Positions 1-20,000 of a DNA stretch of 20,000 nt are shown one piece after another. Position 1 is the first letter of the stretch; each line of letters opens with the position of its first letter. The stretch is from Psammoneis japonica (lineage: Eukaryota). Where the stretch lies: assembly GCA_008632985.1 (NCBI GenBank), contig QPGO01000285.1:53471-73470 (forward strand), read 5' to 3'. The notes under the pieces were generated by a model. It was not told the origin of the DNA. It saw only the letters and a program-made list of their open reading frames with translations, and made no database searches. The translations under genes and the position numbers were made by a program.

Positions 1-3000
1 GCTTATGGGTCCCTGCTGGATTCGCATTCGCAATCCTCAACCCAACGGATCTCCGATGAGTTGGTGCAAGCTCGAAATGCAGGTGGACTGTCCCAAGCAT
101 CTTAATAGGCTCGATTTGGTCACCAAGGGTGTACCCCGTCCGCCTCCTCCTATGGTTACTGTTTCTTTCAAGCTCAAGACGATTGTTAATCCCAAGACGC
201 AAAAGTCGGAGATTGTATCCGTCAGCACCATTTGTCACAAGCAAGTTTCCTTGGAGACGGCTTCGGATGAATCGACGCGTCACATGACGCAGCTCTCTCT
301 CATTCGTCCTTTAGGTGGAGCTAGTGGTGGTGGCATTCCGCAATTCCCCCGTGACATAGACTCTGAGATTGCTACTTCCATTCCTCAGTTGCAACGTATG
401 CCCAACGAGAGAGCCTTGCTCAGTAGGCTCTTGGCGCAAATTGGAAACTGGGATCCCGACGTTTTAGTCGGACACAACGCGTGGGGATACGACATGGAGA
501 TTATTTTGTCTCGTTGTGCCGAGTTAAAAGTCCCTACGTGGAGTAAGATTGGAAGACGTCGCAGGATGCAGCTTCCGCATCGGTCGTCGTTTTCCAAGTC
601 CAAGGATTGGGCCATAGCTGATGCGGTGGCAGGGCGACTACTTTGTGATACATATTTGAGCGCTAAGGAATTGCTTCGTGAGACAACATACTCGCTCACC
701 AACCTGGCGGCTTCGCAACTCAAGATGGATCGCCAGGAGATTCAGCCGGTTGACGTCCCGCGGTGGTTTTCTTCGTCCAAACACATTTGCCACCTTGCCA
801 GTACCACCTTGTCCGACGCCCAGCTGGTGCAACGGCTTTTCTTCAAGTTACAGATTCTGCCTCTAACCAAACAGCTAACCAACATCGCTGGTAACTTGTG
901 GTCGCATACGATCAGAGGACGGCGTGCGGAGCGTAACGAGTATCTGTTGCTACATGAGTTTCATGAGCTCAAGTTCATTGCTCCAGAAAAGAAGAAATCC
1001 AAGCAGGATGCAACGTCGAAGAAGGCTAAATACAGCGGTGGTCTGGTGTTGGAACCAAAGAAGGGTCTCTACAATTCGTTTATTCTCTTGTTGGATTTTA
1101 ACAGCCTCTACCCCTCCATTATTCAGGAATACAACTTGTGCTTTACCACCATGGATTGGTCCAAGTATACAGATGGAGATGGCTCTTCGTTACCTCCGGT
1201 TCCGGATGATAGCTTGGATCGAGGGGTTCTTCCGCGGGTTATTAAGACTCTTGTCGAACGCCGACGTGGTGTCAAGAATATGCTCAAGAAAGAAGAAAAT
1301 GCGGAGAAGAAGCAAGAGGTAAGGCATTATTGGCTTGAGCGTGATTTGCCTGTCCTTTCGACAATGTCTTATTATTGCGTTTTCTGTCTCTGCAGCTGAA
1401 CATCCGTCAGCAAGCTCTCAAGTTGACTGCCAACTCCATGTACGGATGCCTTGGTTTTTCTAATTCTCGCTTTTACGCTCAGCCGATTGCCGCACTCGTC
1501 ACAGCCATGGGACGTGAAACTCTTCAGCGTACGGTGGATGTCGCACAAGACACTGTCGGTCTTGAAGTGATTTACGGCGACACGGACAGTATTATGATCA
1601 ACACTCGGATCTTGGATGCGTCGAAGGTGGACGAGGTCAACAAGCTTGGAGACAAGGTCAAGAGGGAGGTTAACAAACTCTATCGAAGCATTGAGTTGGA
1701 TATTGATGGCATTTTTCGCAAGATGCTGTTGCTTAAGAAGAAAAAGTATGCTGCGGTTACTGTGACGCAAAAGCCCAACGGAGAATACGAGTACTCCCAA
1801 GAGGAGAAGGGTCTCGATTTGGTGCGAAGGGACTGGTGCATTCAGTCGAAGGATACGGGACGTTACGTGTTGAGTCAGATCCTCTCGGACGAAGACGGCG
1901 AAGAAGTTGTAACGAAAATTCACGAGCATCTTGAAGGCGTCGCTGCAAAAATGAGGAATGGCGAGCTACCGCTTAAAAAGTACGAGATTACCAAGGGACT
2001 GAGCAAGCATCCAAATGATTACCCCGACGGTAAATCTCAGCCTCACGTCATTGTGGCCAAGGCGATGTTAAAGAACAACCGGCCTGTCAATACGGGAGAC
2101 CACATTCCCTATGTCATCACGGCTGCAAACGAAGATTCATCGTCAGACCAGCCCACGACAAAGACCTCGGCTGCTGAACGCGCGCGTCACCCTGAAGAAA
2201 TCGAACGTAGCAACGGGGCCCTAAAACCAGACGTCGAGTGGTATCTTGGCCAGCAGATTCTCCCTCCTATTGCTCGCCTCTGTGAGCCTATTGCCGGGAC
2301 CTCGCAAAGTATTCTCGCTGAGAAACTAGGGTTGGACTCGACCAAATATTCAAGTGTTATCCACTCTGGTGGAACCGAAGTGGACGACGAGGATCTGGTG
2401 GATTACACCCCGGCGTCGAGTCTACCCGACGAGGAGCGGTTCAAGAATGTTGAGAGGCTTATGCTTACCTGCTCGGCTTGCAATGTGAAGAGCGAGTTTC
2501 CAGGAGTGTTTTTGCCTCCAAAGACGCCACTACTGGATCCACTACGCTCGTTTCGGGATTGCGCTGTGTGAACCCCGACTGTCCTCACCCTGAGTTTTGG
2601 GGTAAACCCAGTCATGTCGATTGCTTGGCTCGGGTTTCCAACGCCGTTTCCATGTTGGTCCATCGTCGTATGAGACAGTACTACCTGGGCGAGATTCGTT
2701 GCGAAGACCCCTCCTGCGGTCTTGTCACCCGCCAGCTCTCTGTTGTCGGTGAGCAGTGTATGAGTCGAGGTTGCACGGCTTCCATGCACCCTGTGTACAG
2801 TGAGCGTGCGATGCACGACCAGCTCAAGTACCTGGACGCTCTGTTTGATGTTAATCACGTTTGTGAGAAACTCGAACAAAAGAAGTTCGGCACCAAGAAG
2901 GATCTGCTCAGGGACATTTCCAAGAATGACAGGACCACGTGGGAGGAGCTCCGTGAGGGCGCCAACAAGTATCTACAGGGTAGCGCTTATAACTGGATTG

Positions 3001-3047
3001 AAGCCTCCTTGTGGACAACGTTGTTTGGCAGTAGTAGCCCGAGGTAA
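1..3047 (+). CDS. POLA1: DNA polymerase alpha catalytic subunit (family B), 5'-truncated by the window; intron 1319-1395; apparent 1-nt frameshift in T-run 2509-2513
   Basis: Family B motifs [53 protein letters not shown] and [11 protein letters not shown], plus Pol-alpha-type DPDVLVGHN and C-terminal Cys clusters (CSAC..CVNPDC; CEDPSC..CMSRGC). The intron GAG|GTAAGG...CTGCAG|CTG (77 bp) joins ORF 5-1318 in frame to 1396. The C-terminal zinc domain continues in ORF 2478-3047. Confidence 0.96.
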
Positions 3048-3106
3048 AGCAGTAAGCGCGTGTGGGGCGTTGCCGTAATTTAAACCTTGTAGTATTTCAT
3101 GGACTA

Positions 3107-4572: not shown

Positions 4573-5129
4573 ATGCTGAAGACCGTGTACGAGTCGCTAT
4601 GTTCTAGATCCAATACAGAAACTCCTCTGTGAATGAGAGATTGATGAATCGCAATAAAAAGTAAGCATGAAGCAGCGACATTACAGGCACGCAGAAGCAC
4701 GCCGCAATCACGGCCCACGCGCGTTGCATATAACATACCGTCATCTGTATGGCTCTCTAGAACGTGCTATTTTCTTTCGTTGTCTCTACTTTTCTTGCAT
4801 AAGGAGCCATTATTGGTGAAAAGACACGCATTGAGATGCATTATAATATCATTCCGTGAGTTGCATCGGTGTTCAGCCACTCTCAAATCGCCATCGTCAT
4901 GCCGACAAGCCCGCAACAGCGCGGTGATATGGGTGTTTGATATTTATATCTTAAAATATGAATATAATCATTAACAGATTCATCATCACAAAAACTCTCC
5001 ATGACATCCCTCCCGCTAAACTCGACACGATGTTTCTTGTTTTAATCATTCAACGACGGAATTGTTGACGCAGACGCCATACCGTTACTCTAAGGTGTAG
5101 AGGAATCACTTGTTACGGAAAATCAGCAC

Positions 5130-6503
5130 ATGTCGCTCTTGTTCCACAAGCCAAACACAACAGAAAACGGACGAGGGCAAAGAATGTTTTGCCTCATCAG
5201 GTTGATTCTGTCGATTGTCCTTTTACTGTTGGTTGCTACATCCTGGCGTCAACTTCACTTTGCATCTGCAACAAACGACAAGGGATCGCCTTTCTTTTCA
5301 TTGTCGCGATGGGGTTTTCGACGAGCGCCCTCGTCGTCGTCGTGGTCATCACTCTTGACGTTGGATCCATCCAAGATTTTACCCACGCTGGTGAAGCACG
5401 GGGGTTTGCTCGTTCCGGATTACATTGAAAAAGATCTAGAGTCATTGGCTCAAGTCTGTCATGTCGAAGCATCGAGTCTTGATGTCGCAAATCGAAAGCT
5501 TGAACTAGTGAATTTCACCGTGGCTCTCTCAAACGAAACTCAACAACAAGAGGATTACAATGCTGCGCTGAGAATCGGTCGAGTTTACATTGAGTGGGAT
5601 TCCTATCTGCGTCCCTGTGTCAATATTCAAGTAGAGCAAGTTGAGATTCTTCTTGAATTTACCAATTTTCTTCTCACAAGAAACAATTGGTGAGTCTGCT
5701 ATGTACGGTATTTGCGTTGAGATGTGCGGAAGATTGTTCATGACGCATAACAGTACCAACAGGGATTTTTTGTTTTTGTTTATATCCACCTTAGGCACGA
5801 ATTGAACGATGCTGGGTTTCCTCCCCGTCTGCTCTTGGAGAGTAGTGGTACTAGCGACAGTGACGCGCCGAGTAGCACCTTTGTTCGGTTTAGCAATGTG
5901 GAATTTCTTGGCAATGTCGTGGTACGCATTCAATCACGCCCGTTGGACCATAAACCATTGACCAACGACATCATGTTTGACTTTGCTACACTCAAGGATT
6001 TGACTTTGGAGATTCAAGCATTGGCGGAATCCAACAAGAGCAATAATAATGCAGACGAAAGACCCGGTTGCACCACGGATGAACTGTACAACCTGACGGT
6101 TGACTGGTTCATGCGAAAATTGGAGGGCGTCCTACAAAAGATTCTTTTAGAGTTTGCGTTTGCTCCAGAAGGTGGCATTAAGAGTGCTAGGCGACAAGTA
6201 CAAGAGCATCGACAACAGCTTGCAAAAAATGCTCGTTCCATGCTGAAGGAGTATGCAACGAGTGCCGGAAACAAGATATTGCAAGACCACGAAGGCTCCT
6301 TCTCAAGATTGAAAGACCTCGTGCCAAAAGAACATTTAGACCACCTGGAACAGGTGTCAAAGAAACAGCTAGATCGAGTAGCAGACGGTAGCTTGTTCAA
6401 CAAAATCCTGAAGAAGGCGTTTGATAAGAAGGACAAACCACCGATTGGAGTGGACGAGGATACATATGAGTTCCCAGAAGACATTATGTTTCCCGATCTG
6501 TAA
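5130..6503 (+). CDS. Hypothetical protein (~422 aa) with N-terminal hydrophobic anchor; two exons (5130-5689, 5795-6503)
   Basis: Intron TG|GTGAGT ... TTAG|G (5690-5794) with a T-rich tract joins the two ORFs in frame (..TRNNW-HELNDAGFPP..). Hydrophobic segment LIRLILSIVLLLLVA. Confidence 0.8.
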
Positions 6504-6569
6504 CACACTATGTTTCATAATAAAGAGCTATTGCGTTTTCGATGCTGACGATCGACGATGAGTCCACAT

Positions 6570-6862
6570 CTACTAGGTACCGGTACCGGTAGAGCATTGT
6601 GATTGAGCACAACATAACACGCTCGCTACCGGTACTTACTTCTAGCTACTGTAGAAGTAGCTACTCTCTACTACTCTCTCTAGAGCTCTAGCTAGTAGAC
6701 CACTCTAGTAGAGAGCTAGAGAGAGCTCTAGCTAGCTACTCCTACTAGCTAGAGTATGTCCATCCCCCTTGTCCTCCCGTCCGTCCGTCCGTCTCATGCC
6801 AATGCAGAGATGAACGCGAGGAGGGATAGGAGGAGTCGTCGTCGTCAGTAGACTAGTCTACC
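6570..6862. repeat. Low-complexity CTAG/TAC/AGAG tract with short palindromes
   Basis: GGTACCGGTACCGGTAG, repeated CTAG/GCTAGC/AGAGCTCT, GTCC x3-4, GTC x4, and the perfect palindrome GTAGACTAGTCTAC (6848-6861). Lies between convergent genes. Confidence 0.75.
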
Positions 6863-7087
6863 AAAAGATCTCTTGCCCATTCTGGGATTTTGACATCTCT
6901 CGTATCATAAGCTATAGAATCATCGTACTGGTATTCATTATCACGATCTGTATTTTTAAACTTCTATCCTAAATGAAGGTTTTGACATGGACAAACCGCT
7001 GATTTAGCATCCAAGATTCCAACGATCTCATGTTAACCAATCTTTAAACTTGATTGGTTGTCTAATGAAGCAACTTGTTATTCGTGA

Positions 7088-8773
7088 TCATGATCCGTAT
7101 ATCCAACTTATGCACGCCATGGAGAGGAATATCACAGAAACAACCCCAACCGCAATAAAGATACTGGGGTGATCCACGTCTTCGTGGTGGCCACAATAAA
7201 ACAACCTGCACGGCATGCTTCGTGAATCCGAAATCTCTGAAAGCACTCGTTTGTAGAGGTCATCCTGGACCGTCAAAACATATCTAGCCTCGGAGGGTGC
7301 CTGGTTCTTTTGCCGACACGCAGCACAGTTGTCGCAGTTGCAGTTGCACGCACAACCACCAAAGTAGTTCACTTCTTCATCCATTAGATACTCGGAAAAG
7401 TCATCGTATTCATCAAGGTAGTCTGATCTGAAAATCATTCCTGACTCCAATTCCGAGTCCATCAACAACTGGACCTTGTCGGTTGGTGCATGAAAAAGAA
7501 CTTTTCCAGTTTTTGTCACGCCACGAAACAAGGTGCTTCTCCTGACATCCGACACGACAGATGTAACCGATACGGTCGACAGCATGGACGAGAGACTCAG
7601 TTCCGATCCAGTTCGTTGAAGTGGTAATGGTCCGCTTTGTCCGTCACCGGAAGAAAAGGATCTGGCCCGTGTCGCCAGCGGTGGACGTGCGCTTCGTGTT
7701 GCGCCACCAACACGTTTTCGTTCCGAGGAAAAGGGTGATTTGTGTACTGGCGGCAATCCTTCGGAAGAAAAGGTACGGCGATGATGTCCACTAGCTGATG
7801 GACGAGTGTCTGATCCGTAGGAGCTGATTCGACGGTGTCCACCTATTGGACGCCCACCCAAAGAATTGTTTCTACGATGATGACCAAGAGATCCTGTGCG
7901 TTTGTGACTTGACCTAGGACGCGGTGGTGTCGTTGAACTAGCCATCACGCCATCTCTGTCTTGTGGTTCCGCTTCTTGAGAACGTGACAATAGCGGTGTC
8001 CTCTGGGTGCTGTCTGTAGCAGAATGGACGCGTCGATGATTCCTGGATAACAAACTTGGACGTGGTAATGTCAAAGATGGGGAACTTGGTCGGGGTGGTG
8101 GTTTTGCGGCTACTGCTTCGGTTGATACATAACCAGAATTACTCGGTGATTTTGTGTTGCCGGAGGAATATATCTGACTTAATTGGTGCTGATCATGTTG
8201 AGGTGGAGTTTTGTATATAGAGGATCGTGGGCTTGACCGGTGACCCGTGCTTCCAGTTGACTTGCGACGAGAGCTTCGGGTACTGCTCGGCGGAGGAGGA
8301 GTCCTCGCTGTTGAACCATAGCCAGTGTGTTGTACTTCGTCTTTTGAGGGAGAGAGAAGCGGATGCCCAGGTTCGCTCCAGGTAATTACTCCCGGAGCAC
8401 CATGGCCATTGGCGGGAGAAAGACCCCCGTAACCATAGTCATAAGCATTTTCCTGAGGTGGCGGTGGTGGTGGAGGCGGCGGCGGTAGTGTGTTTGACCA
8501 CGAAACGTGCTGCACATGATGAGGTTGGTATTGATTTGATGGAGTCACGCTGGGGTCAAAGAAAGGAATAATCTCATCATCCGAAGCAGATCTGTATCGG
8601 TCTTGAGGAGGCGTTCCTCCGTAACCGAGATTAGAATGTTGCTCTGCTACAGAACTATGTGATTGTCGATACATGAGTTGTTGGTCCTCCCATGCAAGCT
8701 GCTCTTCTCCAGTTGAAAAGCGACGATCCTGGTTCAGATCATGGCCCAACTCAGCACTTGACTGCTGCGTCAT
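7088..8773 (-). CDS. Hypothetical 561-aa protein: long disordered Ser/Pro/Arg-rich region, Cys-rich motif, C-terminal transmembrane helix
   Basis: Single long ATG-initiated ORF with poly-Pro and RxxS-type repeats, CACNCNCDNCAAC, and terminal hydrophobic helix IFIAVGVVSVIFLSMACISWI. Confidence 0.85.
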   Translation of the reverse strand: MTQQSSAELGHDLNQDRRFSTGEEQLAWEDQQLMYRQSHSSVAEQHSNLGYGGTPPQDRYRSASDDEIIPFFDPSVTPSNQYQPHHVQHVSWSNTLPPPPPPPPPPQENAYDYGYGGLSPANGHGAPGVITWSEPGHPLLSPSKDEVQHTGYGSTARTPPPPSSTRSSRRKSTGSTGHRSSPRSSIYKTPPQHDQHQLSQIYSSGNTKSPSNSGYVSTEAVAAKPPPRPSSPSLTLPRPSLLSRNHRRVHSATDSTQRTPLLSRSQEAEPQDRDGVMASSTTPPRPRSSHKRTGSLGHHRRNNSLGGRPIGGHRRISSYGSDTRPSASGHHRRTFSSEGLPPVHKSPFSSERKRVGGATRSARPPLATRARSFSSGDGQSGPLPLQRTGSELSLSSMLSTVSVTSVVSDVRRSTLFRGVTKTGKVLFHAPTDKVQLLMDSELESGMIFRSDYLDEYDDFSEYLMDEEVNYFGGCACNCNCDNCAACRQKNQAPSEARYVLTVQDDLYKRVLSEISDSRSMPCRLFYCGHHEDVDHPSIFIAVGVVSVIFLSMACISWIYGS

Positions 8774-9308
8774 ATTATGAACAACGAGGCAATCAAAACT
8801 GACCTAAGTTAACGCCATTGTGGGTAGTGACGTCGTCGTAACGTCTTGTACCGGTAGGCATGGCGGCGCTTTCAGCGACGCCGCATTGAACATCGAGAAC
8901 GCATGCGGCGGAGTGCCCCTCTTATTTTGTGAGGCGTGACACAACATTACATTCATCTTCGTCGACATATCTTCTAATTATATCTTTCATACTATACCAT
9001 TCTTAAAATATGACATAACTTAATGATAGCTTAGAGCACAAATACAATTTATTCATTTCAACGTCGCATGGGAGTTATCTCGTAGAATTAATACCATTCG
9101 CTAAACTACACAAATTGTCAGTACTGAAGCTACTTGCTATCGCAGACTGTGGCGCAAAGCGCTTTCCCGCCTTCCATTTTTCTCACCGCGATTCCATGCT
9201 CCATGCACTGAAACAGCAGGTATTGTTGTTTTGATTGTATTCCAAATTGTCACTGCAGTTTCCTTCCACTTTTTGTCTGTACACGTCGTTAAAGTTCATT
9301 ATACAACA

Positions 9309-9704
9309 ATGGGGAAAGGTTCGAACGTCCAGAAAGCGCAGGCAGCGAGAGAACGAAACCAGAAGAAACAAGGGAAAAGCGAAGAAGAACGCCGCGCCGC
9401 TTCCGACAAGGCAAATAAGGACAAGTCAGCATTTGTTTGTCTCTTGTGTCGCCAGACCTTTATGGTAAACGCACGTCCGCCCGTGTTGTACCTTCATGTT
9501 ACTTCCAAGCACCCCGCAGGCACCGATCCAGTGAGTTGCTTTCCGTCTCTAAAAGATTATGATCCCAACGACCCCAAAGGAGAGAAGAAAGCGGCAGCAG
9601 AAAAAGCAGGTGGGGCCGCCAAATCCAAAAAGAAAAAGAAGCAAGAGGATAATCTTGACGATTTGCTTGATGCGGGATTGAGTAAGGGCAAAAAGAAAAA
9701 ATAA
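9309..9704 (+). CDS. Small ZNF706/SERF(4F5)-like C2H2 zinc-finger protein (At2g23090-like), 131 aa
   Basis: ATG at 9309 gives MGKGSNVQKAQAARERNQKK (SERF/4F5-like N-terminus), followed by CLLCRQTF...LYLHVTSKHP...CFP and a Lys-rich tail. Confidence 0.88.
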   Translation: MGKGSNVQKAQAARERNQKKQGKSEEERRAASDKANKDKSAFVCLLCRQTFMVNARPPVLYLHVTSKHPAGTDPVSCFPSLKDYDPNDPKGEKKAAAEKAGGAAKSKKKKKQEDNLDDLLDAGLSKGKKKK

Positions 9705-11233
9705 GCAATGCTGGCGTTCATAGTAATGCTGAGCAGGACATTGACATTAGAAACCAAGATGAACGGAGAGACAGCAGAAATCAAAGCACCCATGCTGTTT
9801 GTCGTACCGTAACAGGTTTATTGATGATGATCAGTATAGACTTGCATGCTTCAATACTGCCTTTCCGTTCGATTTGTATCATTTCCTGTTTGTTTCGTGG
9901 GCCCGATGTTTGCTTGACTGATGTGTACCGTTAGGGTTTCTCAGTTTGTCGGAGGCAAGCGCAAAGGAAACATGAAATCTACTTTGTAGCCTAGTCGCAC
10001 CACCGTAGCTCTACAGACAAACTTTGTGACTGGACTAATATACCTTTGCGATTGACCACCGTCTTGGGTACAATGCACGGTGGGCATTCGCCCATGCTCA
10101 CCGCGAGGTTCCAGAAGATCTGTGTGATTCGTATGATGCCGTTACCTATTTGGGCGCGGATACCGAAGCCGGAGGGGTCGTTTAAACTTATCGTCGAGAT
10201 GCGGATATGCAACTTTTGGGAAAAGAGTGAAATCTAACCGACATGTCGGACTTCCTACGTCAATGTCCTCGTGCCCGGCGCGGCGGGTGCAAGCTCGCTG
10301 CCGTCATGGTCCGTCCAAGACAACTTTAAAGAAATCTTATAGGGATTTCCTGTCTTGCATAAGAGACTTGAGAGCCTAGCCCAAGTTCGGCCGACGGCAT
10401 AGCAGGTACCCGAGGCTTTTGTCTCTTGTTTCCTTTCTATGGTGTGTCGCTACCTAGTTTCCGTAGTTGGCGTTCGTGGTTGTCAAACCAAGAAATGCGG
10501 ATAAAGATGTGGAATCCAGCTAGTCAGACGGCGAATCATCGCAAAGTGAATCGTCGTAGTAGCCGTTGAAGAAAAGCATAGAAGGCATCGACGCATCAAC
10601 CCGGCAAATAATGACGGAAGTTACAGTAGTTTTCCTACGACGCCCTGCAAGGATGAAAGAGGCGATCATTTGCGCACGAAGAAATCATGACGTCGATCGG
10701 ATTGGGCATCACTGTTTTCTCGTTGTCCTTGCAACGAAGCAATCGTGCAAGAATGGAAATCCTCGGAAAAATTCTTTGATGCCACTGCAACCAGGGATCA
10801 ATATTGATTTAGAACGCATATGCATGAACGCTTGTACGTACTCTCGCATATCTCTTCTTTTCTCCTGAAATTGCCTTGACGTTTGGGTTCTCAAGGCGGA
10901 CTGGAGAATAAAATAGATTGACGTCCTTGCCATGTTGGACATTGCATTTTGCTTTGCTCGTTCTAGTACTTTGTCAACATCCTCCGATCTTATCAACAGC
11001 ATGCAGCATGCATGGTTCAAATGACTCGTTGCAAATGAACCAAAACCACGCACCGGATGGGGAACCAGCGGACTGGAAACAGAAGGCATGTCTTGCAAGG
11101 CAGCTGAATCGCAGCCATGGGCTCAAAGAGACGGATGGTGCTGGAACGATCAAAACTATTCGACTTGCTGTATGGAAACACAAACTCATCATCCCGTGAG
11201 TGCGTGTTACCTTAAATCTCAATTTTAAACGAA

Positions 11234-11683
11234 TCAACGCGATTTTCCTTTTTGATCAGAATGCCTTATTGTTGTCCAGGCCTTCGTCGCCTTCCAAGAC
11301 AACCAAATGCGCCCTGGAACGGTAATGGGCTTGAAGAACAACCTTCCAACCTTGGCCTCAACGTAAGACGAAGCAAAGCGTGCCGGATCCACTCCTCGCC
11401 CCTGAAACCAAGCAGACATCCAATTCGGAGAGCCTGATTTCTTTGTCGAAAGCTTCTGGAGCTCTTGTTGTACACGTGGGTGTTGGATAATGACGCTCGT
11501 AGGTCTTCTCCAAGAAACTGGTGCACTCGGAAGCGTCGGTTGCAGCTGATAGCATAGATACCATGTACTTCCAACGAGCAAGGCGGAAAGTGCGGTATGA
11601 ACGAGAACAAAAACCGAAATATCTCCCGCCGACAAATTGTGCTCTTGAACAAACGCCGTTGTATTTCCAAACATGCCCAGCAA
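11234..11683 (-). CDS. Hypothetical small membrane protein (possible distant FAM210/DUF1279-like); start uncertain
   Basis: 149-aa ORF with protein-like composition, hydrophobic segment ISVFVLVHTALSALLVGSTWYLCY and motif FASSYVEAKVGRLFFKPITVPGRIWL. The family assignment is only a resemblance. Confidence 0.55.
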   Translation of the reverse strand: MLGMFGNTTAFVQEHNLSAGDISVFVLVHTALSALLVGSTWYLCYQLQPTLPSAPVSWRRPTSVIIQHPRVQQELQKLSTKKSGSPNWMSAWFQGRGVDPARFASSYVEAKVGRLFFKPITVPGRIWLSWKATKAWTTIRHSDQKGKSR

Positions 11684-12103
11684 AAGAAAGTTGGGCCCTT
11701 GGAAAGGGATTTAATGAGAAATGAGAGAATGACGGGTTTTGGCAGGCAGGCAGGCACACAGCATGGATGATGTGATCACATTGGCGATAGCCGTTAGACC
11801 AAAAAAAACAAATGTTATACGTTGACAAGGGACTAAATCCCTTTTAGCCATCTCTTCATCACTGTTGATCCATGGCATGTGCAGCAGTAACCGCCACAAA
11901 CCGATTGCCGACTACCATGCTAAAGATTGTGGGCGCCACACCCCGGTTTCTGGGGCGATTGTCCCGGGTTTTCGTGCGCGATCTGTGCGCCATAACCTGC
12001 CGGCACGTTTGTACGAAAAAAGTAAGCGGCAGTGCAGCATTAAGCTCGACATGAAACGAACGTCGCTGCGACAACATCAAAAGACAAATTGAAGAAGAGC
12101 ATC

Positions 12104-15100
12104 ATGGCGGCGCTTTTCAACCAAGGTGCTGTTGATGCGGCGGTGGCAGCTGGACTGAGCTTGCCATCTCACACGAGACGAGTTGGCAGTGATGAACCAT
12201 CCGGCGAGCTCAATCTAGAAGAAGCGCTGGAGGAGGCCAACGAAGAAGGTGATGGAGGCGACTCCGATGAGGAGCATGAAATTGCCGACATGCACGATGA
12301 TGCAAGGGCTGAAGCCTTTGCTGATCGGCAAAGAGCCACGGTCAATGGTGAGTCTGATGAACAGACAGTTGAAGTGAATGACGCCACTTCATTGCTGCTT
12401 CACCGCGGGAACATCGAGCACCCCCACAATCTTCATGTCCCAGTGCCGCCAACTGACTGGGTTCCTCCAGCTTGAAAGGCACAACAAGGCGAGCCCGAAT
12501 TCACGGATGCAGACAATCCAGGCGGCTGGAATCAGCTCACCTTCCACCCTGAATTTGACGCCAAGGGCGCCAAACAATGCTTGTGCCATTCGCTCCCAAC
12601 AGGTGCCACTCCTGTTCCCAAAGATGAAGAAGGCAGATGTCCAGTCAACGATTGGGAATTTTTCTGTGATGGGTGGACGCGTGAAAGATCATCCCATTTT
12701 GTTTCTGCTGATGCTGGAGCGATGCTGTCCCTGTCAAACAGGAGCGGAGCATCAAAGGACAATCTGTTCCCAGAAAGCAGGAAGGGCTGACGGGTTCCAG
12801 TCCTGGGTGGGACTTTTTGTGACATTGGGCCCGCAGAATTCTGCATGCGAGCTCTGCAGTAAAATTGTCAAGCAATGGACACATGAATGATCGCCAACAG
12901 AAAAAGAGGCAATTTTGCGGACGCATCTCCTCCTCCACACTTGAAGCACATTCTTTGCAGTGTGCCCGGGTGTGTTCTTCAGACATTAAAGAACATGCCC
13001 AGCACATTTTTGTTGACACAAGTGCAGATGACAGAAAGCCTTTGGCTTCACAAAACAGGCAGTGTCGAACAATTTTTCATGATGGAACACGTAGAAATGC
13101 ACGTGCGAAACATGCGACGGATGACAAAAAACAATTGTGTCACAGCTCAGCAGTGCGAGGTCCCACCTGGAGCTGGAACACGTTGGCCACTTGGATCCAG
13201 CAATGCTGAAAGCGCTTGGCATGACAAAGGAAAGAATCAGCAATCATGGTGCTCTCTTTTTTTGTCAGCTCATTTTGCCAATTTGTGACATTTCAAAGTT
13301 GGGTGTCGACAATGACCCACGAAAGCTGTTTTACACGGAGGTTGAAAGGTTCTCTAACTTGCGTGCTTTGAGAGACCCAAATCCATTCAGCTCGCATGGG
13401 CATGGTGCCAACATGGTTGCTGCAACAGAGTTGGTGCATTTTGATGGTGTGGTGGTTCGTGATGGGGTGAGAGGCGGCAGTGATGGCGCCATTTGTCGAC
13501 GGTGGCAGAGCGGATCGGACCATGATTCAACAATGTCAACGGTGATGCACCATGCCCGCTGGCTCCAAATGAAGCGTCTGACCAAGCTTTGCGACAACAG
13601 CGTGGCGCCACAATGTGGAGAGGATGGGTGTGACCCAGCATGCAAGCATTCCATGCTGCATGATGTCATTGTGCACAATGTGAATGCGATCACCAGAGTT
13701 GCCGACCTCGACATTTGTGGTGACGAAACAACGTGGGGGCATGCAGGTTGCGGAGAGGCTGGCAGCGGATTGACTGGCAGAATTGCTGGGAAGCCGGGCA
13801 TCACAAAGGGGGGGGGCAAACAGTCATTGTCAGTGACACGCACTGCACTCAACTGCGAGCGTGTCTGCATCATCACAAGCTTCGTCCCAAGCCTCAAGGT
13901 TGGGGAGCAATGGGCCCGCTTGAAGCGCGAATGATGATGGAGCAAACAGCACCCATGGTGCAAACTGTTGGGAGCAATGATGGTGATGGAGGGCCAAAGA
14001 AGATGTTCATGGGCAAGCCTCACAGCACTTGGGACAACTGCTTCTCAGGTGACCAGATTGTGGGCTGGCTCGGCCAAAATGGATTTTCTGCAACTGTGAC
14101 ATGTCGTCGAGATCGCCTCCCATCCGGAATCCCTGCAAAGCATTTTCACAAGAAGGTGATGCGGGTGGATGACAGGTCAAAGGTGGCTCGTTTTCTTGAG
14201 CCTGTCAATGCGACAAAGACGGTCCCCAGATCAGACACGAACAGGGAGTGCCAACGGCTTCATTGCTCATTTCAATCTGCCTCCTCCTGCAACATTGCAA
14301 TGGTGAATGCTCTCAACAAATGCTCAAAATTTGCAACACATCGTGAATGAGGCCAGGGAAGAAGCAAGCGCCATTGGGGCATTGAAATGAATGAAGCAAG
14401 AATGACGCACCTCAGCACCTGCTCACGAATTGATTCCATTGATCATTTGATGAAGAACGCACACATGTTTTATCGATCGTGGAAGCACTGGCACTCGGCA
14501 ATGCTGCATGGTAAGAAGCTTGCTGTGACAGTTGTGTGTGACATCCATCTTGAATGTTGTGAAGGGAATGTCGATCCTGAGTGGCGCAATGACAATCCCA
14601 TGTCATTCTGGTCGTTTGAGACAGGTGTTTGGAGCAAATGTTGGAGCACAAGCCAGAGCGTTGCATGCATCCTGGAGACTCAGCAATGCAAGCATCAACC
14701 CAACAAAACCAGCAACGCCGTGACCGTTTGGTCGACAGCGTGCCTCGCTTGACCACCACAATGGGTGAGGTCGTCACAACAACTCAATGCCGGGAGGCAA
14801 AACGTGGCGGCTGTCCACCCCGCTCATGTGGTGACCTGACACAATTGCGGAGGCACATTGATGGAGTGGAGACGGGTTTGAAGCACCCACGTCTTTGTGT
14901 TTGGTGTGGCAAAGATGCGTGCACGCGATGCAACGTCTGTGGGAAATTTGTGCATCATTCAGCGTCCCACCGTGGGAAACATGGTGATGAGAATTGTTTT
15001 TTTCTCTGCCATGATGAAGGATTGTTTGGTCTTGCATGAGATGACACCAAACTTTTTGTTTGCAAGCGCAAGTCAAATTGGAAAGAGCCATCGCAAGCAA

Positions 15101-15162
15101 GAAAGCAGGTGAACGCGACTCACATTCAAGACATTCGTCAAGGACGCAGCAACCCTGAATGA
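12104..15162 (+). pseudogene. piggyBac-type (PGBD) DDD transposase pseudogene
   Basis: Catalytic-type motifs DICGDETTW, HSTWDNCFSGD (cf. DNYF) and RIDSIDH; SWKHWH; C-terminal Cys-rich domain CVWC..CNVC..H..CFFLCH. Disrupted by in-frame TGA at 12473, 14348 and 15037, frameshifts at the G-run ~13808-13816 and near ~14615, and an insertion at 12790-13184. Confidence 0.88.
12790..13184. mobile_element. Non-autonomous TIR element (MITE-like, ~395 bp) nested in the transposase
   Basis: Left end ACGGGTTCCAGTCCTGGGTGGGAC versus reverse complement of right end ACGTGTTCCAGCTCCAGGTGGGAC. Flanked by GGCTG (12785-89) and GGCCA (13185-89). Removing it restores the frame FPESRKG-x-LDPAMLKALGMTK. Confidence 0.8.
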
Positions 15163-15267
15163 CAAGTGTCCAGCCAATCAGTGTCACACACAAATCACAT
15201 TTCTGTCAAACTGCTGCCAGCAAAGCAGAAAAATGAGCATGACTGATGCATTGACAAAGCAACAATG

Positions 15268-15495
15268 CCGGGTGCAGGAACCGCAATTTTGGTGCGGGCG
15301 TCGCACCCGCATGAATGAGCCGGGTGTGGCACCCTCTTTTCAAATGAGGGCGCCACACCCGCATTAAAAACCTGGGTGTGACACCCGCTTTTCAAGTCGG
15401 TGCACCACACCCACATAAAAAAACCCGGGTGTGACACCCGCTTTTCAAGTGGGTGCACCACACCCGAGTGAAAAAAACCGGGTGCAGCACCCTGG
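15268..15495. repeat. ~53-bp tandem array (about 4.3 copies) of palindromic GGGTGTNNCACCC motifs; transposon subterminal repeats
   Basis: Units start near 15268, 15320, 15372, 15425 and 15478. GGGTGTGACACCC occurs at 15374-15386 and 15427-15439. Each unit carries a second, inverted copy (GGGCGCCACACCC / GGGTGCACCACACCC). Confidence 0.85.
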
Positions 15496-15899
15496 GTTTT
15501 GGTGCCAAGACCAAACGACACCTCGCTCATCATCTCGCATGGTTTGGCCAGTGTCATTGCGTGCAAGCGCACAGAGCCATGGGTCTGCTGCAGCGACTCG
15601 TCCGCCACAGAAGCATTTTGTGGCAAGGTCTCGTCGGATGAGGAAGAAGAGAGGTCGCGGTGTTGTCTGAAGAAGACTTGCAGAAGGAAGAGGGCACGCC
15701 ACAGGCTGAGAAAGAAGAAATGGTGCCAATGTGTTGAGCTGTGGCACAAGCTGCACCCTGATGCAAAGCTGCCATCTGCACCCCTGACCCCATTGCCAAA
15801 TTGATGCCTCTCGTCAACATTGGAGTTTTGCACAAAAACTTAGAAGAGAATGACAAGGGTGGGCTGGGGGCATTTCCTGTGGACAACTTGGTTTTCTCA

Positions 15900-18800
15900 G
15901 AGCTGAGAGCTGTGCTGAGTGAGCCAACTCTTCAGGAAAGCTGCTTTTGATGTGTGGAGGGCAACACCTGCCTTCTCAACAACAAAACTCAAATGTGCTT
16001 TTGTTCTTGTTTTCTTGCACATGAGCGAGCAGCTTGTGTGGCTCATGTGCGCCACACACACTGCACTCACAAACTGTGCAAGGTGTGCAGCACGGCTGTT
16101 TTGGGCAACAAAGATGACCTTGAGTGAGTGGCTGGTCAGAAAATGAGTCTGTCACAACCAAGGCATGTGTGTTGCATGGCTGTTGTTTTTGTGGGTCAAA
16201 GTGCAATGTCTTGTTCTGGATGAGTCTCTGAGCAGCCCAAATTCCCAAAATTCATGTTTGCCCACTCTGCACTCACAAAGTGCATTTGCACAAGCCACAC
16301 AGTGCATGAATGGCAGCCAAGTGACCCGCAGCCAAACTGTGCTTGATGCTTTGAATTTGTGCCTTCTTGCTGGAGCATGCACAGTGTGCCTGGAAGCTGA
16401 GAGTGCAAACAATTTGGCAGCAGAAGAGAATTTTTCTGCTGACTGAGACCCATGCCACCAGGTGCTTCTGCACACACAGAAGCTGTGCTGCCACCACAAT
16501 GGCAGTCAAGCAATCCAGCCAAGCTGTGCTCAGCACTTTGCATTTGTGCCTGGGTTGTGCAGCAGAGAGTGCTCTCTCCTCAGAAGCTGAGAGTGCAGAC
16601 AATTTGGCAGAAGCAACTTTTTCTGCTTGCCGAAACCTGGCTGCCAGGTGTCCCTGCAAAAACAGAACTGTGTGCTGCTGACATGTTCCAGCCCCATGCA
16701 ATGCTGCACAAAATGAGACCTCATTTTTGAGCACACAAGTGACATGTTCCTCATGACGACAATGTGTGGAGTGTGCTCAGTGCTCACACAAAATTGTTCT
16801 TTCATTGGTGCCCAAGTTTTGTGCCTGTGATGTGTGCACCACAATTTGTTTTTGTGGAGTCAACGCCAATTGCATGACAGCATGTGTTGGCTGCAACGAA
16901 GCCTTTGCAGAGGCAGAATGCCTGCCAGAAAAAATGACAAACAAATGTTTTGTGTTGGCACCATCCAAACAGCAATGGCACGCAAATTCTAAGATTTTGT
17001 TCAAGAATCACCTGTTGCATCATGATTCATTCATCCTTGCAATGAAAGTTGTTGACAAACAACACTGGCATTTGGACAAAGAATCCATGCTTTTGATGGC
17101 CAAAATTCAGTCGACACAAGTCAGAGATTGCAGAGTGTGTGCAGAAGCTGAGAGCACAAACAATTTGGCAGATGCGGGAAAAACTGCCTCTGCTGGCCAA
17201 TGCTCAGCCACCAAAGTGCCAACTTCTTGTGCAGACAGAAGCTGCGCTGTCACCTTGGGGTTGCAAAACATGCTCAGAAGCTCGGAGTGTGCAAACAATT
17301 TGGCAGAAGTGGCTGTTTCTCTTGCAGCTGAAACTTGGTCACCAGGTGTTCCTGCACACACAGAGGCTCTGTTGACCATGACTTTTTGGACACTGACACA
17401 CCCTGCTGAGTGGCCCAAACTCCCAAAATTTTTGTGTGCAGCACTTCGTTTGTCCTGAACTGCAGAAAAGCTGATTTTGGCAGAGGGCAACAGCTGCCTC
17501 TTCATGACATGATGAAGTTTAAGTGCTTCTTCTTGCTCTGCTCACAGATGAGCAGCTCTCACACAATTTGTGCACACACACCGTGCACTCACGAAGTGTG
17601 CGAAATGTGTGGCATGACTGCTTTGGATGACACAGACCTTGGGTGAGCAACTGGTCAGAAAGAATGAGAGCAACCTTTCACTTCACAAAGCACAATTTCT
17701 TGTTCCAGATTCTTCTCTGATCCACCCAAATTTCCAAAACTCATGCATGCATCATGTTGTGCTCACAAGCTTGCTTGCGCGTGCTTGTGGCTCAGAGTGG
17801 GCCTGCGCAGGTTTTCTGCTGGGATTGACTCGACTGACCTGGCTCTTGACGCCAAAGCACGACAAAACAACACGTGAATCCTTTGCCGTTGTTCATTTGT
17901 CAACCACGAAGAGTTGCCAATCCAATGAGACACATGTGATCCACAAGTGCCTCATTGATGTAGCTGCACCCAAATGGCTTGGCAACTGTTCTGGGTGGGC
18001 CCGAACTCGTTCGACGGAACGTGTCATCGTGGTGGTGTCGCGTGCCAAAAATCGGTGGTTGTCAATTCGCAATGATGTGTGTCAATGACTGCACAAATGA
18101 CCAAAAATTCTGGTGTGTGACGCAGAATGCTGCTGGGGTCAGTGCGAAAAGCAGCAAGCTTGTACAAAGTGCATGAGGTGCATGGCACAACTGTTTTGGC
18201 AGGCAATGAAGACCCTGAGTGAGCAAACCATTGGGGTGCAAATCTGTTGCCCAAGTGTGCGGCATTGGTCTTGTTCTGTGGGTGAGTCTCTGCAGCCCAA
18301 TTTTCCCAAAATCCATGACCACACACTCTGCCCTCATGAAATGCACTTGTGTGAAGCAAACAGCGTGAATGGCAGCCAAGCAATCTGGCCAACAATCTGC
18401 ACTCAGCACTTTGTGTTTGTGCCTTGGGGCATCGTGCAAAGTTTGCTCAGAAGCTGAGGGTGCAAACAATTTGGCAGAAGAGATTTTTTCTGCTGGGTGG
18501 CACCTGGCCACCTGGCATTCCTGCACACACACGGAAGCTGTGGTGTGTGTCCCTGCACAAACAAAAGTTGCTCTGCCACTGCAGTGGCAGCCAAACAGCA
18601 ACCCAGCCAAGCTGTGCTTCAACACTTTGGTTTTGTGAGCCTGGGGTTGTTCAGTGTGTGCTCAGAAGCTTGGAGTGCAAACAATTGTTTGGCAAAAGAG
18701 ATTTTTTCTGCTGGGTGACACCTGACCACCTGGTGTTCCTGCACACAGCATGCACAAAAGCTGAGCTGTTCATGAACTGCCCTGAAAGCTCATGAACTCC
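15900..18800. repeat. Modular degenerate repeat region (TG/CA-rich), element class unknown
   Basis: Motif GAAGCTGAGAGTGCAAACAATTTGGCAGAAG in variant copies at ~16393, 16583, 17144, 17277, 18450 and 18665. A second block (GACCTTGxGTGAG...TCTTGTTC...CCCAAATTxCCAAAAxTCATG) occurs at ~16115-16256, ~17635-17745 and ~18210-18317. Confidence 0.75.
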
Positions 18801-19483
18801 ATTTGAGTTTGCAAACCTCCAGCTCATTTGTTTCTCCTCGTTGAGCTGAGGTTTTTGTGTTTTAAACTTTGTGTTTGGAAAAAGTCCGTGAATTGAAAGC
18901 CCTCAGTGTTTTGGTTTTTGAGCTCCCAATTTTTTCAGGGTCGCCGAAGTGATGACGAAATTGAATGAAAACACGCGAAGCCACCATCATGACGCGGTTG
19001 TGCACTGCAGAACTTAAGTGCTTCAAAGTGTTCAAACGCCAAGCAGCTGCTGACAACTGCAAAGCACAGCTGAAAACATCGAGCCGCTGTTGAACGAGCA
19101 GCAACCCCTCCTGATCAGAGAAGAGCTGAGGACAGACGTAGTCATCACAACGTCCTTTCGCGTTGAGTTGCTTGCTCTTTTTCCGCCAAAAAGTAAGTCC
19201 GCCCATCCAGCATCGTCGGGCATACGGTGTGACAAGAAGCAGTTCGCAATGGCTTTCTCGGTCTCTCTAGCTAGCTACTAGAGAGGAAGCTCGTCTCAGT
19301 GGCCATGTGCATATGCAAAGAATAGCAACTTGAAACTAGACTACCATAGTACTGCACATGTTGCAGTCATCAACTTCGTGATCCAGCTACACAAACACAG
19401 CTTTTAAAAGGACAGAAGGGGCAACCCAGCACCGGCACCGTGACGTGCAGAAGTGCAAACGCCAAACGAGCCTCTACCATTTA

Positions 19484-20000
19484 TCACGCGGTAAACCCGA
19501 CGTTCGCCTTATTATGCCCCTGAGATAAAAGGTTTACCTCAACTCCTTCATCACCATGGGGTTGCTGTTTCGACGTCAAAATTATTCTGCAATTTTCAAT
19601 CGTGGTCGAGACATAGGTTATCACCGACAGATCCTCTTAATAATGCAAGACAAACAGACCGAAGTGAGCTCAACATGAACTTTTAATCAAGACTTGGCAA
19701 CGGTAAAGTTACTGCGTTAACTCACCAAGATCGTCGCCGAAAGGATCTATCATTTTCTGGCCAAGTAATCTCAACCCTACAACAAAAATGGACTGCAAGA
19801 TAACAATCAAGCCACTGAGCAGTTCAATGGTCCAGTCCGAATCGTCTCCCCAGCCAGCAGAAAATGCGTTGTCTATCGCAAAGAGTGGCAAGTAGAATGC
19901 AGAAAGCAGGCACAAGAAATGGATGTAGAAGAAGTGAGTGGGCTGATCGCAATAATCATAAATGCCATCCATGGCACCTCTCAAATCTAGAATACGAGTC
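19484..20000 (-). CDS. Bestrophin/UPF0187-like anion channel, 3' end only; intron 19636-19725
   Basis: QPTHFFYIHFLCLLSAFYLPLFA...IFVVGLRLLGQKMIDPFGDDL, spliced (G|GTGAG...AAG|AG) to EDLSVITYV... This gives the bestrophin-type DPFGDDxEDL motif. Stop TGA at 19486-19484. Confidence 0.8.

Follow-up and report, generated by a model that had tools for sequence, protein, structure and literature searches.

How does a stretch of several kilobases come to lose one dinucleotide almost completely when neither of the two bases that make it up is scarce? The question is raised by a window of 20,000 nucleotides (positions 53,471 to 73,470 of contig QPGO01000285.1, assembly GCA_008632985.1, Psammoneis japonica; "the window" denotes this whole stretch throughout), in which a tract of almost seven kilobases is nearly free of TpA. 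The tract holds most of the relic of a piggyBac-like DNA transposon, a miniature inverted-repeat transposable element (MITE) nested within that relic, and an adjoining field of degenerate repeats. A preliminary description of the window had inferred that TpA is converted to TpG and CpA in mobile or silent DNA, in the direction opposite to that of fungal repeat-induced point mutation (RIP). This core inference is borne out by what follows: tyrosine codons now read TGY or CAY (Y, pyrimidine), and in a pair of related elements 45 changes lead away from TpA and none back to it. We consider it likely that the tract is dead mobile DNA that has been rewritten by a local, TpA-specific A:T-to-G:C process.

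Between positions 12061 and 18840 there are 15 TA dinucleotides where base composition predicts 416.3, an observed/expected ratio (O/E) of 0.04, and only four of them lie in 15901-18840 (O/E 0.02); both counts had been made by hand before and prove exact on recount. The flanks stand at 0.62 on the left (1-12060) and 0.53 on the right (18841-20000). Since the four bases are about equally frequent (A 0.26, T 0.24, G 0.26, C 0.24) and neither AA nor TT nor AT is depleted (O/E 1.25, 1.23 and 0.86), the loss is no effect of GC content, as the preliminary description had maintained. The enrichment of TG and CA that it reported amounts to nearly twofold (O/E 1.85 and 1.70). CpG is lowered as well, to 0.48 overall, with 0.66 in the transposon (12044-15471) and 0.28 to the right of it (15472-18861). 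The books nearly balance: a deficit of 401 TA and a deficit of 223 CG, 624 together, compare with an excess of 657 TG plus CA, so that CpG decay alone covers only about one third of the excess.

The depletion runs through the whole tract and has sharp edges. Every 500-bp window from 12501 to 18501 has a TA O/E of at most 0.09 and TG and CA O/E of at least 1.49, and the two parts of the tract, 12044-15471 and 15472-18861, both show it (TA 0.05 and 0.02, TG 1.73 and 1.97, CA 1.62 and 1.79, respectively). The run is bordered by a TA at 12041 and another at 18863. All of the ten longest TA-free gaps of the window (1149 down to 202 bp) fall inside it; the eleventh, of 175 bp (12041-12216), lies at its left edge, and the longest gap outside measures 166 bp. 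At the density of the left flank, 290.6 TA would be expected in the 6818 bp from 12044 to 18861 where 14 are found (Poisson P(<=14) = 2e-103).

The direction of the change can be read from the transposase that the transposon once encoded. TAT and TAC, the two tyrosine codons, are the only sense codons that start with TA. We aligned the four surviving pieces of the transposase (12476-12787, 13125-13931, 13844-14347 and 14351-14749, broken by two in-frame TGA, a frameshift and an insertion) to 20 relatives and considered the 26 columns at which at least half of the relatives have tyrosine. Here the window reads Cys (TGY) in 10 cases, His (CAY) in eight, Arg (CGY) in two, Tyr in two and some other residue in four; in the middle piece alone, aligned to 19 relatives, one of nine tyrosine columns is still Tyr, three have become Cys, four His and one Arg. 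Most of the other consensus residues have been retained (G 38/45, W 10/12, N 10/11, H 12/15, C 6/7, F 15/20). At 5 of 16 columns Ile has turned into Met, that is, ATA into ATG, and at 8 of 28 Arg has turned into His, Cys or Gln, which is CpG decay. With Cys and His now standing where relatives have Tyr, this copy must once have coded normally, and later about 92% of the TA at the columns in question disappeared, a figure that agrees with the bulk of the relic (O/E 0.05 against a background of 0.62). Judged from the aligned codons, TpA loss is best described as decay after insertion and not as native composition.

If the window's copy has decayed from a normal state, other copies of the family might be caught at different stages of the same decay, and a scan of metagenome contigs suggests that they are. 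It yielded 80 loci that encode relatives of the transposase, 75 of which have a whole-locus TA O/E of at least 0.5. We scored 24 consensus tyrosine columns by tblastn in these loci and in the window copy (81 rows; the 80 rows with at least eight columns were tested) and find that the lower the TA O/E, the higher the combined share of Cys and His (Spearman -0.74, p 4e-15). In copies at a TA O/E of at least 0.5, 16-22 Tyr, 0-1 Cys and 0-3 His are typical. Four loci at TA O/E 0.39-0.44 (L068, L070, L071 and L034) are intermediate, with 9-11 Tyr, 2-6 Cys and 4 His. Three more have gone further: L055 (TA O/E 0.19) has 1 Tyr, 5 Cys and 7 His, L050 (0.17) has 2, 8 and 11, and L079 (0.13) has 1, 5 and 4. 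The window copy, at 0.04, has 2 Tyr, 10 Cys and 10 His in these 24 columns. At a given tyrosine column, one tyrosine-free relative may carry Cys while another carries His, so the copies were hit independently. The preliminary description had allowed that intact elements might be equally TpA-free, which would have made the signature one of intrinsic composition; intact relatives of the transposase turn out to have normal TpA and normal tyrosine, and that objection fails.

Where the depletion lies differs between these loci. In L050/L055 and L079 it extends over the transposase itself. L034 (about 500-2000) and L036 (about 4400-6400) carry TA-free patches of 1.5-2 kb, with TA O/E of 0-0.1 and TG and CA O/E of 1.5-2.1, that adjoin DNA with TA O/E of 0.7-1.3; frames from these two patches have no Pfam match. 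Beside the patch in L036, positions 6751-7500 have an excess of TA (O/E 1.3) and low CpG (0.44-0.65), so CpG-poor DNA is not always TA-poor. Erosion is visible among predicted proteins, too. Out of 165 homologous proteins, three are free of tyrosine and one has a single tyrosine, against a median tyrosine content of 4.1% and a minimum of 2.5% among 120 homologues of POLA1, a host gene of the window. Four relatives of window positions 13125-13934 (P0146, P0203, P0243 and P0232) are tyrosine-free, Cys- and His-rich "hypothetical proteins", in fact decayed transposase frames, and absence of tyrosine could be a cheap proteome-wide flag for TpA hypermutation. A further group of relatives (P0295-P0311), intact and 850-930 aa long, is found on contigs no longer than 3.2-4 kb, comparable in size to an mRNA or a single element, so live copies of the transposon family may be common in environmental data.

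Two of the metagenome loci are similar enough for individual substitutions to be counted. Over 2 kb, L034 (3117-5127) and L079 share 95% identity; they carry 66 and 21 TA, respectively. Read from L034 to L079, their 93 substitutions comprise 33 A>G, 34 T>C, 10 C>T, 3 G>A and 13 transversions. Changes at TA lead to CA in 25 cases, to TG in 18 and to CG in two, and there are none in reverse. A spectrum resolved by context was one of the checks on which the preliminary description had staked its reading, and in these relatives the result, 45 to 0, speaks for it. Pairs with equal TA O/E, which serve as controls, show few and symmetric changes at TA (21 versus 21 of 505, 2 versus 2 of 41, 3 versus 5 of 108 and 1 versus 1 of 18), and pairs with unequal TA O/E are again asymmetric (L062/L080, 31 versus 12; L040/L056, 14 versus 5). 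L065 and L066, which are 99% identical, have 26 differences, seven of them at TA sites, which hints at recent activity elsewhere.

Both strands are affected alike. The tract region contains 786 TG and 722 CA, and the two do not cluster by strand (756 runs versus 753.6 expected, z = 0.12); strand-coordinated clustering of TG and CA, as in APOBEC kataegis, is not seen in the same runs test. Cys and His are likewise found at about 1:1 (10:8) at the tyrosine columns of the window. There is, on the other hand, a preference with regard to the base that follows. Between L034 and L079 the converted share is 0.59 for TAT, 0.37 for TAC, 0.28 for TAA and 0.13 for TAG, which gives an odds ratio of 3.4 for a pyrimidine versus a purine (R) 3' of the target A (p 0.0016), while it makes no difference which base precedes the T. 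A pool of five further pairs agrees (TAY 100/561 versus TAR 35/503, odds ratio 2.9, p 7e-8). Of the TA that survive in the window, 7/15 are in a YTAR context, a poor target on both strands.

What, then, marks a piece of DNA for this treatment? The transposon begins at 11931, where a paralogous contig of sequencing run X1 starts to align, and its first 110 bp or so have kept their TA; in the next 457 bp TA O/E is 0.04. Two parts of the tract are single copy at a likeness of at least 80%, namely 15572-16205 (depth 53-64) and 18125-18861 (on a unique contig of 5 kb), and both are TA-free. Sparing at the left end together with the hits in single-copy parts suggests targeting by domain and not by element boundary or copy number. 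The name "repeat-targeted", under which the signature was first described, finds no support in the two single-copy parts and the untouched left end. TpA also fades faster than CpG. Of the background TA, about 8% is left in 12044-15471, versus about 66% of the CpG, so the per-site rate of loss would be roughly six times higher for TpA if exposure was equal.

The right half of the tract (15472-18861) is made of degenerate modules of about 190 bp that are 65-78% alike. When modules are compared with one another (11 partly overlapping pairwise alignments, 1518 columns), adjacent double transitions between CA and TG are found 42 times, against 2 for the AC-GT control and 2-7 for other classes. We read these 42 as the footprint of independent decay of a pyrimidine-purine (YpR) step. 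No Pfam, Rfam or tRNA match is found in 15472-18861, and its frames have no match in the 80 related metagenome loci. Its longest open frame (233 aa) is equalled or exceeded in 33% of Markov simulations, a chance length, so the many long frames of the tract are a by-product of TAA and TAG loss. The second high-copy repeat in this half (17791-18107) may be another MITE within the tract.

The proposed course of events is this. A piggyBac-like transposon, a nested MITE and an adjoining field of degenerate repeats would have formed a block of dead mobile DNA in a diatom-like genome. After coding had ceased, about 92-95% of the TpA steps of the transposon would have been rewritten by A:T-to-G:C transitions, a hit on the A of the top strand giving TpG and a hit on the A of the bottom strand giving CpA, with both strands struck about equally and with a preference for a pyrimidine 3' of the target A (T-A-Y over T-A-R). 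CpG would have decayed to TpG and CpA in parallel, more slowly, presumably by deamination of 5-methylcytosine in methylated repeats. The process would stop sharply toward host genes and take no account of copy number. Its agent may be an enzyme, most plausibly a deaminase of the TadA/ADAT2 kind that would act on adenine in DNA and be steered to silenced chromatin, as has been proposed for the same signature in the chlorarachniophyte Bigelowiella natans (see below). In the natural tRNA substrate of TadA and ADAT2 the target A34 always follows U33, and both the TadA site, U-A-C, and the Y-A-C favoured by early base editors resemble T-A-Y. The direction of change, its TpA context, its strand symmetry, its timing after inactivation, its independence from one copy to the next and its occurrence in other genomes with this transposon family can be read from the sequences compared here; the deaminase step, taken by itself and argued from analogy, we regard as possible, at somewhat less than even chances.

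Several points weigh against this account or limit it. The deaminase is an analogy in the first place. The directional spectrum comes from related elements in metagenomes and not from the genome of the window, and no protein relative exceeds 59% identity. Within that genome, 40 listed of the 687 places at which the window differs from close X1 contigs include 23 exchanges between CpG and TpG or CpA and only one TA in the other copy, so TA had already gone from the close copies, and the decay that can still be seen among them is that of CpG; ongoing TpA mutation in the window's own genome is a claim that its near copies do not support. The alternation of TG and CA between modules could go back to CG as well as to TA. 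The T-A-Y preference in the five pooled pairs assumes that TA is ancestral, and codon structure may confound it. Finally, run X1 is possibly the sample behind the window's own assembly and hence maybe not independent. It should be added that mobile origin is established for the transposon relic, the MITE and the repeats, and not for 15472-18861 as such.

The question of independence deserves a closer look. The locus is present in three sequencing runs, all of one sample, with no RNA run among them. In the contigs of X1, 0.78 of the sampled 31-mers of the window are found, and contigs at a word depth of about 56 match 15436-16500, 16473-17781 and 18125-19999 with 14, 5 and 2 differing letters, respectively. 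The confirmation by reads that the preliminary description had proposed is thereby obtained in part: the X1 contigs match the TA-free sequence, and the confirmation is only partial because X1 may be the assembly's own data. Unrelated metagenome assemblies give independent support for the phenomenon.

Could the signature have arisen without a TpA-directed process? One might imagine that the elements had always avoided TA, for example as a safeguard against transposons that target TA or TTAA or against a TA-specific nuclease, and that they were inserted TA-free. Close paralogues in X1 are indeed TA-free as well (1/40 listed differences restores TA), and TA-free relatives occur elsewhere. Yet in a gene that stops, a frameshift and a MITE have disrupted, conserved tyrosines have given way to Cys or His; TA and Tyr are normal in intact relatives; Cys or His was chosen independently at the same site in different copies; and three unrelated sequence types share the loss of TA, from which the transposon's first 110 bp are exempt. 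We consider native avoidance highly improbable. Nor does error offer an easy way out, be it in assembly or base calling, or because a non-canonical base at TpA is read as G or C. That all runs with the locus stem from one sample, maybe the assembly's own data, and that the platform is not on record leaves some room for this view. It has to contend with contigs at word depth of about 56 that reproduce the TA-free sequence, with the same signature and its sharp edges in unrelated metagenome assemblies (L034, L036, L079, L050), with tyrosine-free predicted proteins from other sources, and with protein-level changes, frame breaks and copy differences that behave as inherited mutations, and an artefact is accordingly hard to believe in. 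A combination of generic forces, 5-methylcytosine decay at CpG plus GC-biased gene conversion or a repair bias of heterochromatin, would at least be in keeping with the depletion of CpG (O/E 0.28-0.66) and with the dominance of exchanges between CpG and TpG or CpA among differences between close copies. However, a CpG loss of 223 makes up about one third of the TG plus CA excess of 657 and cannot remove TA, the undepleted AA, TT and AT leave no place for a general A:T-to-G:C drive, and a 45:0 asymmetry at TA is unexpected from gene conversion. As the sole cause, generic forces are contradicted, and there is very little to be said for them in that role; they stand for the CpG component only.

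A more serious contender accepts the directed process at TpA and differs in its chemistry. Imagine that thymine is the base attacked, either by a TET/JBP-type enzyme that yields 5-hydroxymethyluracil or by a T glycosylase, and that copying or repair then puts C in its place. An A-to-G change on one strand and a T-to-C change on the opposite strand look alike in sequence, the two products are equally frequent, and the co-occurring CpG decay shows that base-modifying chemistry is active in such tracts. 5-Hydroxymethyluracil is known from dinoflagellates, where it is enriched at TpA and TpC. Against this, it pairs mainly with A and is hence a weak mutagen, we know of no T-directed enzyme with a TpA-to-CpA outcome, and the U-A context of tRNA adenine deaminases readily gives TpA specificity. 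On these grounds thymine chemistry strikes us as unlikely, if less so than the preceding explanations, and we return to a TpA-specific A:T-to-G:C process with adenine as its candidate target.

Coordinates of the features discussed are collected in the table.

Features of the window, with the observations that define them (positions refer to the window; TA, CpG, TG and CA ratios are O/E)
Feature	Position	Strand	Observations
POLA1, DNA polymerase alpha catalytic subunit (host gene)	5..3047	+	Pfam PF03104, PF00136, PF08996; TA 0.55-0.66
FtsJ-like methyltransferase frame (host gene)	3285-4196		TpA normal
piggyBac-like DNA transposon relic, low-copy family, broken transposase	11931..15471	+	X1 paralogous contig, depth, homologues
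Left ~110 bp of transposon, spared	11931..12043	.	TA n=4 (0.82), CpG n=12 (1.25)
TpA-erased tract	12044..18861	.	14 TA in 6818 bp, TG/CA nearly doubled, CpG lowered
Transposase relic, N-terminal conserved block	12476..12787	+	In-frame TGA just before, 12473-12475; 2 consensus Tyr columns = TGC, TGT
Nested very-high-copy MITE	12788..13188	.	Splits transposase between conserved RKG and LD residues
Transposase relic, middle block, 269-aa open frame	13125..13931	+	Homologues, Tyr columns
Transposase relic, C-terminal blocks	13844..14749	+	Frame-shifted versus middle block; in-frame TGA at 14348-14350
Three 53-bp palindromic units, probable right transposon end	15294..15471	.	
Non-coding degenerate ~190-bp modules, partly single copy	15472..18861	.	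TpA 0.02, CpG 0.28: lowest parts of tract
Second high-copy short repeat	17791..18107	.	X1 depth 2854, X2 depth 152; 22-nt arms 17903-17924 / 17975-17996

The three kinds of sequence named in the preliminary description (piggyBac, nested MITE and modular repeats) hold up, on the evidence of depth, inverted arms, homologues and the modules themselves. Depth in X1 is 165-360 up to about 15571, versus about 56 for unique DNA, and drops to 53 after 15572. The motif at 11931-11962 is complementary at 72% to 15355-15386, and through this resemblance the palindromic units at 15294-15471 and the motif probably represent both ends of the transposon. The inverted arms of the nested MITE (12785-12813 and 13160-13188, 29 nt) are 76% complementary; its word depth in X1, taken over the two bins in which it lies, reaches 96072 and 51783, versus about 56 for unique DNA, which points to some 1000 copies or more, and it contains three TA (O/E 0.11).

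The 269-aa piece of the transposase has 754 homologues at E <= 1e-3 among 1.84 billion representatives, the best at 54% identity, and full-length relatives of 850-980 aa reach 59%. The 28 stop-to-stop frames of the tract give only chance-level matches against Pfam, none to a transposase, and no frame matches PF13843 at E <= 1. Among 10 relatives, this domain is found above the cut-off in one (30 bits) and weakly in two, with no match in seven, and it is precomputed on three further relatives. From these matches the transposase is tentatively placed in a divergent branch of the piggyBac group. TTAA, the target site of piggyBac, is present at both ends of the TA-free run (12040-12043 and 18862-18865); no inverted repeats were found next to either, and as the repeat unit begins earlier, at 11931, we do not take the pair as target-site duplications. 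TTAA is also the context that resists the process most, so its presence at the edges of the tract may be a coincidence.

The DNA that flanks the tract, including POLA1, has a TA O/E of 0.5-0.7, so the claim that host genes are spared stands. Those POLA1 homologues that bear organism names, among the 120 matches listed, belong to Astrosyne radiata, a Nitzschia and Chaetoceros neogracile, all of them diatoms, and the top identity among these 120 is 73%; we conclude that the window comes from a diatom or a close relative and not from Bigelowiella. POLA1 switches frame between 5-1399 and 1375-2571 and again near 2478-2571, owing to short introns or frameshifts, and otherwise lies in very long exons. 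An open frame with a zf-met2 zinc-binding domain (9231-9704; PF12907, E 6e-12) is probably a small host gene. Intergenic DNA at 6501-7000 marks the opposite extreme of the window, with 50 TA in 500 bp (O/E 1.32) and low TG and CA (0.75 and 0.77). To the right of the tract, 18866-19266 is still low in TA (n=4, O/E 0.15), with normal CpG (0.96) and TG and CA of 1.25-1.35; it may represent either a fringe on which the process acted weakly or plain coding sequence, and a minus-strand frame of 134 aa in it has no Pfam match.

Is the signature new? The preliminary description was unsure, and the answer has two halves. It is known from Bigelowiella natans, where TpA hypermutation of integrated DNA of nucleocytoplasmic large DNA viruses (NCLDV) and virophages is described in a preprint (Mettrop et al., April 2026, bioRxiv 10.64898/2026.01.13.699255), and it has not been described in diatoms, as far as the sources available to us in full or in part tell. 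According to that preprint, 231/302 nuclear single-nucleotide mutations in B. natans mutation-accumulation lines fell in two integrated viral regions (NCLDV 211, virophage 20), at a rate of about 6e-7 per site per generation, raised about 1000-fold; 210/211 mutations in the NCLDV region and 20/20 in the virophage region were A>G or T>C, all on TpA. Its authors propose an ADAT2-like protein as candidate DNA adenine deaminase, and their discussion points out that ADAR favours U before the edited A (10.64898/2026.01.13.699255).

On the preprint's account the likenesses are close. There as here, A:T-to-G:C transitions turn TpA into TpG and CpA and are confined to foreign or mobile DNA beside normal host DNA. 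The long-term signature in B. natans consists of clusters of 1-kb windows in which TpA is low and CpA plus TpG is high, a definition that covers the present tract many times over, and neither case depends on copy number, the NCLDV region being single copy, as are parts of the tract. The differences are equally plain. B. natans is a rhizarian, and POLA1 here points to a diatom, that is, a stramenopile. What is hit here is a DNA transposon, a MITE and debris of repeats, in B. natans it is viral inserts; depletion here is near saturation (O/E 0.02-0.05), compared with 0.45 in the actively mutating NCLDV region. CpG decay co-occurs here, and the main text of the preprint mentions neither "CpG" nor diatoms; the T-A-Y preference found here does not appear in its abstract, Results or Discussion.

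Other systems resemble the tract in part. Fungal RIP, like the process proposed here, is a dinucleotide-specific transition hypermutation that acts on both strands, wrecks mobile DNA and leaves a local compositional domain. Yet it runs from C:G to T:A, mainly from CpA to TpA, and so creates TpA and AT-rich DNA, where the tract has TpA at 0.04 and CpA and TpG at 1.7-1.85; and it needs duplicated sequence, whereas here single-copy parts are hit and the transposon is spared in its own first 110 bp. Decay of 5-methylcytosine at CpG is also concentrated in repeats and also yields TpG and CpA; CpG decay forms a second component here, and it cannot remove TpA. Diatom transposons are reportedly methylated. 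The earlier statement that neither RIP nor 5-methylcytosine decay explains the loss of TpA holds; of the excess of TG and CA, about one third is due to CpG decay. APOBEC3 and ADAR of animals are, like the proposed process, deaminase-type hypermutation directed against mobile or viral nucleic acid; unlike the change here, APOBEC gives C-to-U, and ADAR edits RNA, on one strand, by way of an RNA intermediate. ADAR-type RNA editing that is copied back to DNA does not fit the tract, since both strands are equally affected and a DNA transposon and non-coding repeats are among the targets. TadA, ADAT2 and the adenine base editors evolved from TadA share with the tract a target A that is preceded by U or T. 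To our knowledge, no natural member of the TadA/ADAT2 group is established as a double-stranded DNA mutator of chromatin domains.

A full-text search of the literature, subscription-only papers lying outside its reach, found neither a TpA-to-TpG/CpA signature nor a RIP-like mutational defence described in diatoms; the SPLASH paper (PMC9258296), in the parts available, mentions diatoms and hypermutation in unrelated contexts. The kind of system, then, is already known from one preprint and another lineage. New in the present case are a diatom as host, a transposon and a MITE as targets, erasure that is nearly complete, CpG decay alongside it and the T-A-Y preference, along with metagenome sequences that present many copies of one transposon family apparently at different stages of the same decay.

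The finding has consequences beyond this locus. TA-free tracts, lacking TAA and TAG, give spurious long frames in all six frames and tyrosine-free "hypothetical proteins", which annotation pipelines should flag. A natural DNA adenine mutator with a T-A-Y context would be of interest to base editing. With a second, distant lineage, what looked like a curiosity of a single species would become a candidate for a widespread defence system, and comparative genomics could seek the enzyme among deaminase or base-modifying genes that co-occur with the signature. Diatoms are major primary producers with transposon-rich genomes. We put forward, as a tentative proposal for which we would claim rather less than an even chance, that diatoms, and perhaps many algae of the SAR group (stramenopiles, alveolates and rhizarians), possess a dedicated genome-defence mutator, an adenine deaminase that would act at 5'-T-A-Y-3' in double-stranded or transiently opened DNA and be steered to silenced mobile and viral DNA by chromatin or methylation marks and not by homology, as a mirror image of RIP. 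If such a mutator exists, it would erase TAA and TAG stops together with all tyrosine codons, and would have filled the databases with tyrosine-free orphan "proteins".

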